This document shows positions 15,493 to 16,903 of a stretch of 64,000 nucleotides of DNA, piece after piece. Position 1 is the first letter of the stretch. Every line of letters starts with the position of its first letter. Position numbers and translations under genes: made by a program. The notes under the pieces are model-generated. The model worked only from the letters and a program-made list of their open reading frames with translations. It searched no databases and had not been told where the DNA came from. Origin of the DNA: Escherichia coli 042 (GTDB lineage: Bacteria; Pseudomonadota; Gammaproteobacteria; Enterobacterales; Enterobacteriaceae); the NCBI RefSeq assembly GCF_000027125.1, contig NC_017626.1; one strand, written 5' to 3'.

Positions 15493-16851
15493 TTATGCTA
15501 CGTCTTCGTACTGCGGAACCGGGTTGCGGAAACTCTTGGTTACGCAAGCCAGGTAAATCAGGCCGATAGCCGCCCAGATCAGACCCAGAACCATTGAGCT
15601 TTCTTCCAGGTTAACCCACAGCGCACCAACGGTCAGCGCACCACACATCGGCAGGAACAGATACTGGAAGTGATCTTTCAGCGTCTTGTTACGCTTCTCA
15701 CGAATCCAGAACTGCGAAATAACCGACAGGTTAACGAAGGTGAACGCCACCAGCGCACCAAAGTTAATCAGCGCCGTAGCCATTACCAGGTCGAAGTTGA
15801 TTGCCAGCAGAGCAATCGCGCCAACCAGGATGATGTTCATCGCCGGAGTACGCCATTTCGGGTGTACATAACCGAAGAAGCTTTTCGGGAACACGCCATC
15901 ACGCCCCATTACGTACATCAGACGCGCTACGCCTGCGTGCGCCGCCATACCGGACGCCAGTACGGTAATGGTGGAGAAGATCAGCGCGCCAACCTGGAAC
16001 GCTTTACCCGCAACGTACAGCATGATTTCAGGCTGTGACGCATCCGGATCTTTAAAGCGAGAGATATCCGGGAAATACAGTTGCAGGAAGTAAGTTGCAA
16101 AGATGAAGATCATGCCGCCGATCAGCGCGGTCAGGAAAATCGCACGCGGGATCACGCGCTCTGCATCTTTGGTTTCTTCCGACAGGTTGCTGATGCCGTC
16201 AAAGCCGGTAAAGGAGAAGCACAGGATTGTCGCCCCGGTAATCATCGGGATAACATGCGCATCGCCAGACCAGAACGGACGAGTGCTCGCCAGCGTACCC
16301 GCGCCTTCACCTTCAAATACGCCATAAACAACCATGCCCAGGATCACCGCGATCAGCACTACCTGCAACACGACGATTACAGTGTTGAAGTTCGCTACGG
16401 ATTTCAGACTACGCAGGTTAAAGGCGGTCATAAAGGCCACCAGCGCCACCACAAACATCCACGATGGAATGGAAGGCACCAGAGCTTCAAAATAGATTTT
16501 CGCCAGCAGAATGTTGATCATCGGCGCGAACAGATAGTCGAGCAGAGAAGACCAACCCACCATAAAGCCGACAGTCGGGCTAATGGATTTCTGGGCGTAA
16601 GTGTATGCAGAGCCAGCAGAAGGATAGCGGCGAACCAGCTTCCCGTAGCTCAGAGCCGTAAACAGGATCGCAATCAATGCGAACGCATAGGCTGTCGGCA
16701 CATGACCATCCGTGAGGCCTGAAACGATACCAAAAGTATCAAACAGCGTCATCGGCTGCATATAGGCAAGACCCATCATTACAACCGGAACTAACGTAAG
16801 CGTTTTACGCAATTCCACGCGAGAGGTGTTTGGAGTAACGTTATGCGACAT
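15493..16851 (-). CDS. plaP: Putrescine importer PlaP (YeeF), APC-family transporter, 452 aa
   Basis: Start set at MSHNVTPNT; 12 hydrophobic helices; length matches K-12 PlaP. Confidence 0.9.
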
Positions 16852-16903
16852 GGTCATTCTCCTTTACGGTGATAACCGTCGCGTAAGCAAAAAATTGCCC
16901 CAT
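16841..16903 (-). CDS. Candidate 20-codon upstream ORF ([20 protein letters not shown]) overlapping the plaP start; possibly the small protein annotated as yoeI in K-12
   Basis: ATG at 16903 with GAGGA 11 nt upstream; TAA at 16841-16843 overlaps the plaP ATG region in another frame. Confidence 0.3.

Follow-up and report, generated by a model that had tools for sequence, protein, structure and literature searches.

In the bacterial pairs speFL-speF and tnaC-tnaA, a short leader open reading frame (ORF) precedes a gene from the same pathway, and stalling at or near the stop of the leader controls the expression of the downstream gene. The speFL and tnaC leaders have defined sensor residues and make use of Rho. 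Termination-reinitiation at ATGA or TAATG overlaps, with a restart guided by the Shine-Dalgarno (SD) sequence, is an established form of coupling between bacterial genes.

The locus considered here is the one in which the 20-codon ORF yoeI overlaps the start of plaP, and its nearest functional cases are ymjE-puuP, which has the same geometry, and mdtU-mdtJI. Like yoeI, mdtU is a translated upstream ORF (uORF) placed before an E. coli polyamine transporter, in its case the spermidine exporter operon mdtJI, and conserved across genera; its translation is required for proper mdtJI expression (Adams et al. 2021, PMC7815308). The two differ in that mdtU has 34 codons, has its stop 106 nt before mdtJ and works through Rho-dependent premature termination and spermidine, whereas yoeI overlaps plaP and has no known terminator or ligand response.

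The product of ymjE is a 54-aa small protein that was detected by epitope tagging (VanOrsdel et al. 2018, PMC6001520). As in yoeI-plaP, the small ORF lies directly upstream of the gene of a putrescine/proton symporter, and PuuP is 63% identical to PlaP. The ymjE TAA ends 11 nt into puuP (ATGGCTATTAA, to be compared with ATGTCGCATAA for yoeI-plaP). In contrast with yoeI, which has 20 codons and stands behind a terminator, the ymjE-type uORFs have 54-65 codons and ymjE is inside the puuA-puuP operon.

With respect to generic coupling, yoeI-plaP is alike in having the upstream stop within a few nt of the downstream start and the SD in the upstream frame; it differs in that the overlap is of 11 nt, and not of the usual 4 or 1, and in that the place of the full-size upstream gene is taken by a leader of 20 codons. 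Nothing comparable to the sensor residues of the speFL and tnaC leaders was identified in the 20-codon YoeI.

The yoeI ORF and its overlap with plaP

We analysed a window of 64,000 nt of the E. coli 042 genome (contig NC_017626.1). The original prediction, made from the letters of the window, was of a 20-codon ORF on the minus strand at 16841-16903, and the program-made ORF listing of the window has it exactly there, with an ATG start (16903) and a TAA stop (16843-16841). The GAGGA that had been noticed upstream was found at 16918-16914, 10 nt 5′ of the ATG, where it reads as an SD-like sequence. The ORF had also been described as ending 8 nt inside plaP in another frame: precisely, the last sense codon ends 8 nt into plaP, and with the stop codon included the overlap is of 11 nt.

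This ORF is the known gene yoeI. The observation is thus correct without being novel, since annotations have included yoeI from 2008 onwards and the overlap with plaP was already pointed out in print (PMC11630599). According to the citation in that same paper, Hemm et al. 2008 list yoeI as encoding a 20-residue peptide. The identity with yoeI, advanced tentatively in the original prediction, was borne out by comparison with the annotated gene. The peptide scored 60.8 bits (E = 8e-17) against the NCBIfam equivalog model NF033439 (small_mem_YoeI), whose curated cutoff is 33 bits, with residues 1-20 aligned to positions 1-20 of the 20-residue model; in the Pfam profile search, no model matched the peptide. 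At the corresponding place in both K-12 GM4792 and strain 503025, RefSeq has a gene annotated "yoeI: membrane protein YoeI" (WP_010723108.1). The region of strain 503025 is 100% identical to the query, and in both strains yoeI and plaP overlap by 11 nt. Aligned across yoeI, the DNA is 100% identical to that of K-12, and the K-12 gene (b4678) agrees in its peptide, in its place between yeeY and plaP and in the 11-nt overlap. With a query of 501 nt, the region was matched in 5423 of 5426 complete E. coli genomes, and yoeI was annotated under the match in all 30 genomes among the matches listed.

The downstream gene plaP (yeeF) encodes a putrescine/proton symporter of 452 aa and occupies 15493-16851 on the minus strand, as supported by the ORF listing, RefSeq and Pfam (AA_permease and AA_permease_2). 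We took as its start the ATG at 16851-16849, which other species share and RefSeq uses; the program ORF list has plaP begin at an in-frame ATG at 16857 that most other species lack. The overlap ATGTCGCATAA (16841-16851, minus strand) therefore consists of the plaP ATG followed by the yoeI TAA, which ends 11 nt later in a different frame. The plaP SD, read as AAGGAG at 16859-16864 on the same strand, lies within yoeI codons 14-15, 7 nt before the plaP ATG, and a purine-rich GG(A/G)G is kept at its position across the alignment. Having a good SD of its own at a 7-nt spacing, plaP could also initiate independently, an observation that goes against coupling.

Conservation of the frame and of the leader RNA

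The size of the ORF says little by itself, as 52 ORFs of at least 20 aa overlap the same 3.5 kb. We considered the plaP loci of 80 species-level Enterobacteriaceae genomes and 6 more distant loci reached via protein homologues. A uORF beginning ATGG(G/T)GCA behind GAGGA was present in 80/80 species loci, so the start codon of the predicted ORF is a conserved one, and in 79/80 the uORF ends at the same TAA, 11 nt into plaP. The exception is locus L041, with the uORF stop 2 nt before the plaP ATG. The uORF length was 20 codons in 75 of the 80 loci, 21 codons in three and 16 codons in two.

The same 11-nt overlap was found in 6/6 distant loci (Rahnella, Buttiauxella, Cedecea, Mixta, Pantoea and Erwinia), for a total of 85/86. 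Buttiauxella and Cedecea have 20-codon forms beginning MGQ. The Rahnella uORF, MVQHSHYAAFSIMGITHHVG, also has 20 codons and shares little with YoeI beyond its length and its ends. The uORFs of the Erwiniaceae (Mixta, Pantoea and Erwinia) begin with MGQ and end with NH(D/V)A before the stop, and are 62-65 codons long, with ~130 nt of different sequence inside; the encoded peptides are largely hydrophilic (RLRDDYGATG...RSFPVV), and their RDDYGA and RSFPVV motifs are kept through synonymous change, with pN/pS of 0.34-0.50. Here, pS and pN are the pairwise synonymous and non-synonymous differences, respectively, counted over the same genomes.

The GAGGA of yoeI is invariant in 67 aligned Enterobacteriaceae leaders, with a spacer to the ATG that varies from ~8 to 12 nt. 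Outside, the SD differs at this position, being AAGGAA in Rahnella and AAAGGAA in Pantoea. In the alignment the SD-to-ATG spacer tolerates indels and the body of the yoeI ORF stays in frame. Judged by these comparisons, yoeI is not a chance frame and its frame is under selection, because over the same genomes the body of plaP has a pS of 0.44-0.56 and an unselected frame would be lost.

The conservation is of a different kind in different parts of the peptide. Residues 1-8 of YoeI (MGQFF[AV][YF]A) are conserved, residues 9-13 are variable and residues 14-20 are fixed by the SD and start of plaP. For yoeI codons 2-8 we obtained pS 0.26, pN 0.10 and pN/pS 0.39; considered as an arrest or leader peptide, residues 2-8 thus have pN below pS, with pS itself depressed relative to the plaP body. 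The values were pS 0.239, pN 0.283 and pN/pS 1.18 for yoeI codons 9-13, and pS 0.124, pN 0.206 and pN/pS 1.66 for codons 14-20. In plaP, codons 2-10 had pS 0.13, pN 0.090 and pN/pS 0.69, codons 11-40 had pS 0.275, pN 0.013 and pN/pS 0.05, and beyond codon 40 pS was 0.44-0.56, pN 0.032-0.081 and pN/pS 0.06-0.17. In yoeI and in plaP codons 1-40 (16732-16851, minus strand), synonymous change is hence halved or quartered with respect to normal. Codon entropy agrees with pS in this, with 0.23-0.53 bits over plaP codons 1-40 vs ~0.9 elsewhere, and the constraint is continuous with that on the leader.

Upstream of yoeI, a conserved 5′ leader extends on the minus strand from AAGAGGCCGG to the yoeI ATG (16904-16976) and includes the invariant GGAUAGAUA (16948-16956). 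Nucleotide conservation starts abruptly at its AAGAGG (16976) and extends over the leader and the whole of yoeI as far as nt 120 of plaP. GGATAGATA is invariant in 53/53 distinct leaders from three families. Given the synonymous constraint on yoeI and plaP codons 1-40 and this abrupt onset, the constrained unit is an RNA of ~250 nt and not the 20-residue peptide; selection seems, from the alignments, to act more on the RNA and on the geometry than on YoeI.

Three small hairpins of the minus-strand transcript have support on comparative grounds. The first, ACGGU-UAUC-ACCGU (16866-16879), is formed by yoeI codons 9-13, with a single base between its end and the plaP SD. At the top of the stem the pair is U-A in 29 cases, C-G in 28 and U-G in 4, a covariation greater than in all 500 shuffles, and the switch between U-A and C-G alters two amino acids (V/A and T/A). 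The second, CGACA-GUUGU-UGUCG (16921-16935), lies 2 nt before the yoeI SD; in Enterobacteriaceae its stem is invariant and its loop varies in sequence and length, and the Erwiniaceae counterpart, ACACG-loop-CGUGU, is changed on both sides in three of the five pairs. The third, CCGG-loop-CCGG (16955-16970), stands at the start of the conserved leader block and has an invariant 4-bp stem, a loop of variable length and a fifth position that is G/A in E. coli, C-G in Mixta and Pantoea and U-A in Erwinia and locus L033. Such changes are expected of an RNA stem and not of a protein-binding palindrome, so that the transcript probably begins upstream of ~16970. The sigma-70 scan gave no promoter between the terminator and yoeI, and no convincing -10/-35 was seen there by eye. 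Farther upstream lies a conserved promoter-like sequence, TTGTCA-N17-CACAAT (17085-17057); the mRNA may begin there, with readthrough of the STnc240 terminator, or may begin at ~16976. Among Rfam families, no known cis-regulatory RNA matches the leader, and the sole match in 16500-17400 is the sRNA STnc240, upstream of it.

We also predicted the fold of the RNA. The minimum free energy (MFE) fold for E. coli has -79 kcal/mol (z = -3.24), and in it the SD and start region of plaP are base-paired with yoeI codons 8-11. The RNAalifold consensus has three long-range helices, all of them also in the E. coli MFE fold: the yoeI SD with CCUCUCGC in plaP codons 9-11, GCGACG (yoeI codons 8-10) with UGUCGC (plaP start), and the 5′ block with plaP codons 36-44. 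The helices are compatible with the alignment, with compensatory changes in 0/60 predicted pairs of the consensus. The second helix, which would mask the plaP start, is 96% paired with one-sided wobble changes only and no compensatory pairs, and it competes with the local hairpin of codons 9-13, which does covary. The first scores equally when slid by 2 columns, and the pairing is uninformative because the helix never varies. For these long-range helices we speak, then, of a hypothesis and not of a result.

The predicted accessibility of the plaP initiation region was on average 0.37, vs 0.54 for that of yoeI. Holding the body of yoeI open raised the fraction of the plaP region predicted to be unpaired from 0.37 to 0.50, over 71 distinct leaders. 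This predicted unmasking is modest and is absent in some species, for instance in three Klebsiella loci (L063, L065 and L068).

Proposed translational coupling and competing readings

The original prediction had held that the overlap implies translational coupling or a regulatory leader for the putrescine importer. On the comparative evidence this is the best-supported reading, with the overlap geometry, the RNA-level conservation and the published complementation by yoeI-plaP all fitting it. In its specific form, we give a probability of roughly 60% to yoeI being a cis-acting translated leader that couples the translation of plaP to its own.

Precisely, ribosomes would initiate at the yoeI ATG, translate the 20 codons, melt the hairpin of codons 9-13 and traverse the plaP SD, and would then terminate at a UAA located 8 nt beyond the A of the AUG of plaP. 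That AUG would now lie just 5′ of the E site, with the plaP SD still reachable by the anti-SD of the 16S rRNA, and the small subunit could for this reason slip back: tethered through the SD, it would back up 8 nt and restart on plaP (termination-reinitiation). The passage of the ribosome would also free the plaP initiation region from its pairing with yoeI codons 8-11. Through restart and unmasking together, plaP translation would thus be tied to that of yoeI, and the structured leader and the constrained plaP codons 1-40 would probably set the frequency of initiation at yoeI. The YoeI peptide would be mostly a by-product. We infer reinitiation, unmasking and any regulatory input from the anatomy of the locus and its conservation.

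As in a coupled pair, the yoeI stop is close to the downstream start, overlapping it by 11 nt, and the downstream SD is inside the upstream frame. The geometry is, moreover, kept by selection: the overlap is found in 79/80 and 6/6 orthologous loci, and in 4 puuP loci besides, and the bases that form the stop (the U of importer codon 3 and the AA of codon 4) are identical in all the loci that keep it. In favour of coupling is also the fact that the overlap is kept in the three Erwiniaceae although the uORF has 62-65 codons there.

Published genetics bear on the same point. The deletion of plaP also disrupts yoeI, the Keio allele removes part of it, and in a puuP plaP double mutant a plasmid starting from the plaP ATG restored toxin sensitivity partly and one starting from the yoeI ATG restored it fully (PMC11630599). 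As indicated by the primers, neither construct of that work carries the native 5′ UTR; the comparison is between a vector and a native ribosome-binding site. The complementation fits coupling, but it would be explained as well if the peptide were required or if the vector simply supplied a poor ribosome-binding site before plaP.

KdpF and AcrZ are small membrane proteins that act as partners of their transporters. YoeI could likewise be a functional small membrane protein acting on the assembly, stability or activity of PlaP, and the overlap could be a mere packing of the operon; we regard this as unlikely. The name given to YoeI in RefSeq and NCBIfam (membrane protein YoeI, small_mem_YoeI), the hydrophobic N-terminal half of the peptide and the position of yoeI next to the gene of a membrane transporter are in line with such a role, and a need for the peptide would explain as well why the yoeI-plaP construct outperforms plaP alone (PMC11630599). 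A transmembrane partner would have a hydrophobic span of ~18-20 residues, whereas YoeI has ~12 consecutive hydrophobic residues out of 20, followed by KENDHVA, which are too few to span the bilayer. The Erwiniaceae forms, of 62-65 residues, are largely hydrophilic, and the Rahnella peptide has little in common with YoeI apart from length and ends.

Residues 1-8, conserved and with pN < pS, would suit a protein function, but the synonymous sites of codons 2-8 are constrained too, and for this reason conservation of the peptide is confounded with that of the RNA. Residues 9-13 change freely (pN/pS 1.18) and track the RNA hairpin, and residues 14-20 are imposed by the plaP SD and start. That the conserved residues 1-8 could reflect a function of the peptide is an observation against coupling.

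It is quite unlikely, in our estimate, that yoeI is a sensing leader, in which polyamine- or metabolite-dependent stalling alters plaP translation or premature transcription termination, a reading that can overlap with coupling. Control of this type has been proposed for mdtU-mdtJI and demonstrated for speFL-speF and tnaC. The sensing reading has in its favour that the downstream gene is a polyamine importer, that the uORF of the paralog puuP shares this stop geometry, that the long Erwiniaceae uORFs keep RDDYGA and RSFPVV (pN/pS 0.34-0.50) and that RNA-level constraint acts on the leader and on plaP up to codon 40; E. coli offers a precedent in mdtU, whose translation is needed for the induction of mdtJI by spermidine (PMC7815308). 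Nevertheless, no stalling motif is recognisable in YoeI, and the 20-codon form is without the motifs conserved in the long ones. As yoeI and plaP overlap, they have no terminator between them, whether Rho-dependent or intrinsic, and neither gene is named in the supplementary text of the paper that mapped E. coli 3′ ends (Adams 2021, PMC7815308).

An incidental ORF within a conserved structured 5′ UTR, or within a protein or sRNA binding site, is highly improbable: the nucleotide conservation of the leader and its three hairpins would preserve an embedded frame within Enterobacteriaceae, but the frame, the ATG with its SD and the exact stop survive in Erwiniaceae despite ~130 nt of different sequence, all of these survive in Rahnella too, with a uORF different at most codons, the SD-to-ATG spacer takes indels with the ORF body keeping its frame, and Hemm et al. 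2008, as cited in PMC11630599, list the 20-residue peptide.

The coupling leader was thus retained as our preferred reading. Two other readings of the sequence were discarded. An antisense frame of 53 aa on the plus strand (16826-16987), which covers yoeI and its leader, was rejected because the indels of 1-4 nt in the SD-to-ATG spacer across species would break it. Frameshifting on CAA-UUU-UUU with the downstream hairpin was dropped on reading the sequence, as the heptamer does not follow the canonical X-XXY-YYZ pattern when read in the frame of yoeI.

The paralogous leader of puuP

The 11-nt AUGNNNNNUAA overlap, common to the plaP uORFs (79/80 species loci and the 6 distant ones), has its equivalent at puuP. 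The ymjE-puuP geometry, ATGGC(T/G)A(T/C)TAA, was found at puuP of E. coli, Enterobacter, Buttiauxella and Cronobacter, but a Pantoea has TAATG in its place and a Serratia has ATGA. All importers that keep the overlap have U as the last base of codon 3 and Asn (AAY) at codon 4, although their N-termini otherwise vary.

The ymjE uORF looks unrelated to yoeI. We compared the long YoeI of Erwiniaceae with the puuP leaders, and the similarity was weak. In single comparisons BLASTP gave E = 0.002 and 3e-4, with a shared P-x-RAGTR...YG stretch. The profile-profile comparison between YmjE and the long YoeI was not significant, with only 15 C-terminal columns aligned and a probability of 4%. Homology of the two was accordingly not established, the pairwise BLASTP being suggestive and the profile comparison not significant, and because of the latter common descent is suggested mainly by position and geometry.

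On this basis it is conceivable, but we consider it doubtful, that yoeI and ymjE descend from one leader ORF of ~60 codons that predated the split of plaP and puuP and always kept the AUGNNNNNUAA overlap. Such a leader would have been a polyamine-responsive translational gate, working through stalling or RNA structure as in mdtU and speFL; its long form would survive before the plaP of Erwiniaceae and before puuP, and the 20-codon yoeI would be a minimal remnant that keeps the two ends.

As to the role of yoeI, the comparative data argue for an action in cis, at the level of the RNA and the ribosome, rather than through the peptide. Both putrescine importers of E. coli share the unusual 11-nt uORF overlap, and, if the leader role were confirmed, the polyamine genes under the control of translated leaders would include plaP and puuP in addition to mdtJI and speF; plaP deletions and expression constructs should in that case be designed with yoeI in mind. 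Possibly new are the 11-nt overlap common to both importers, the long form of Erwiniaceae, and the anatomy of the leader with an RNA-level constraint that reaches plaP codon 40; these points do not show that the system is of a new kind.

Two minor observations concern plaP and its surroundings. Going by the GcvB seed, a GcvB target might be the CA-rich CCAAACACC, which lies in plaP codons 7-9; a literature search gave no link between GcvB and plaP. In E. coli 042, sbcB is directly beyond plaP, without the tsuA/tsuB (yeeE/yeeD) that are present there in K-12.

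uORFs ahead of plaP and its paralog puuP

The 11 nt by which yoeI (16841-16903, minus strand) overlaps plaP (15493-16851, minus strand) are equalled at the locus of the paralogous putrescine importer, where in E. coli K-12 the small ORF ymjE, encoding 54 aa, overlaps the puuP start to the same extent (minus strand; 106-270 in L083 and 1606-1770 in L090, both being the K-12 puuP locus). Among the puuP loci compared, the 11-nt overlap between uORF and puuP was kept in Enterobacter, Buttiauxella and Cronobacter, and was not kept in one Pantoea and one Serratia. As regards plaP, the sole locus without an overlap among the 80 species-level Enterobacteriaceae genomes was that of Enterobacter sp. 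kpr-6 (L041), in which a 1-nt insertion in the Shine-Dalgarno (SD) region brings an in-frame TAA to 2 nt before the plaP ATG, and the uORF (2447-2497) has 16 codons.

The uORF preceding plaP in the Erwiniaceae loci L085 (1323-1511), L086 and L087, from Mixta, Pantoea and Erwinia, respectively, is 62-65 codons long. Its first ~13 and last ~7 codons are common to yoeI, and its middle carries the conserved motifs RDDYGA and RSFPVV, with a ratio of non-synonymous to synonymous differences (pN/pS) of 0.34-0.50. The 20-codon yoeI looks like the Erwiniaceae reading frame minus its middle.

Candidate promoter and STnc240

The interval that separates the yoeI leader from the yeeY stop (17118) contains a match to STnc240 (16998-17072, minus strand; Rfam, 68.2 bits, gathering score 55), closed by a strong intrinsic terminator (17007-17031, minus strand). 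STnc240 is an enterobacterial sRNA of unknown function, which Jose et al. (PMC8825220) trace to a gabT-like gene, specifically its 3′ end. In our locus comparison, a class-III aminotransferase gene occupied the STnc240 position in Mixta, Pantoea, Erwinia and Buttiauxella.

Upstream of this terminator lies a promoter-like TTGTCA-N17-CACAAT (17057-17085, minus strand), and a pattern with variants allowed at both hexamers matched a similar site in 61 of the 86 loci (the 80 above plus 6 more distant ones), most of the remaining loci showing, by eye, variant -35 hexamers missed by the pattern. The site stands ~80 nt ahead of the conserved leader block (16904-16976, minus strand), or 100 nt in two loci. 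It is also present in Rahnella, where the STnc240 terminator has decayed and same-strand gene calls are absent for ~730 nt upstream. The yoeI-plaP mRNA may start from the candidate promoter at 17057-17085, and in that case STnc240 would be a prematurely terminated leader transcript.

Constraint and putative regulator sites around the plaP start

In plaP codons 1-40 (16732-16851, minus strand), synonymous change ran at between a quarter and a half of the level seen elsewhere in the gene; one candidate cause is that these codons pair with the leader over a long range. Within this stretch, the CA-rich CCAAACACCUC of codons 7-10 (16821-16833, minus strand) is nearly invariant, and presumably resembles the targets of GcvB, an sRNA that regulates many amino-acid transporters; a literature search for a link to GcvB found none. 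In the leader, the 5′ hairpin is followed by the invariant single-stranded GGAUAGAUA (16948-16956, minus strand), which together with the GGA of the yoeI SD (16914-16918, minus strand) gives two GGA motifs ~40 nt apart, a spacing that would suit a CsrA dimer, as a putative regulator.

A 53-aa antisense ORF with a GTG start (16826-16987, plus strand) spans yoeI and its leader. We judged it a by-product of the conserved sequence, because spacer indels in other species disrupt its frame.

The 3′ side of plaP

In the window, the 3′ end of plaP directly adjoins sbcB (13943-15418, plus strand; junction 15418-15493), whereas in K-12 tsuA/tsuB (yeeE/yeeD) lie between the two genes. The direct junction was found in 1212 of 5426 complete E. 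coli genomes.
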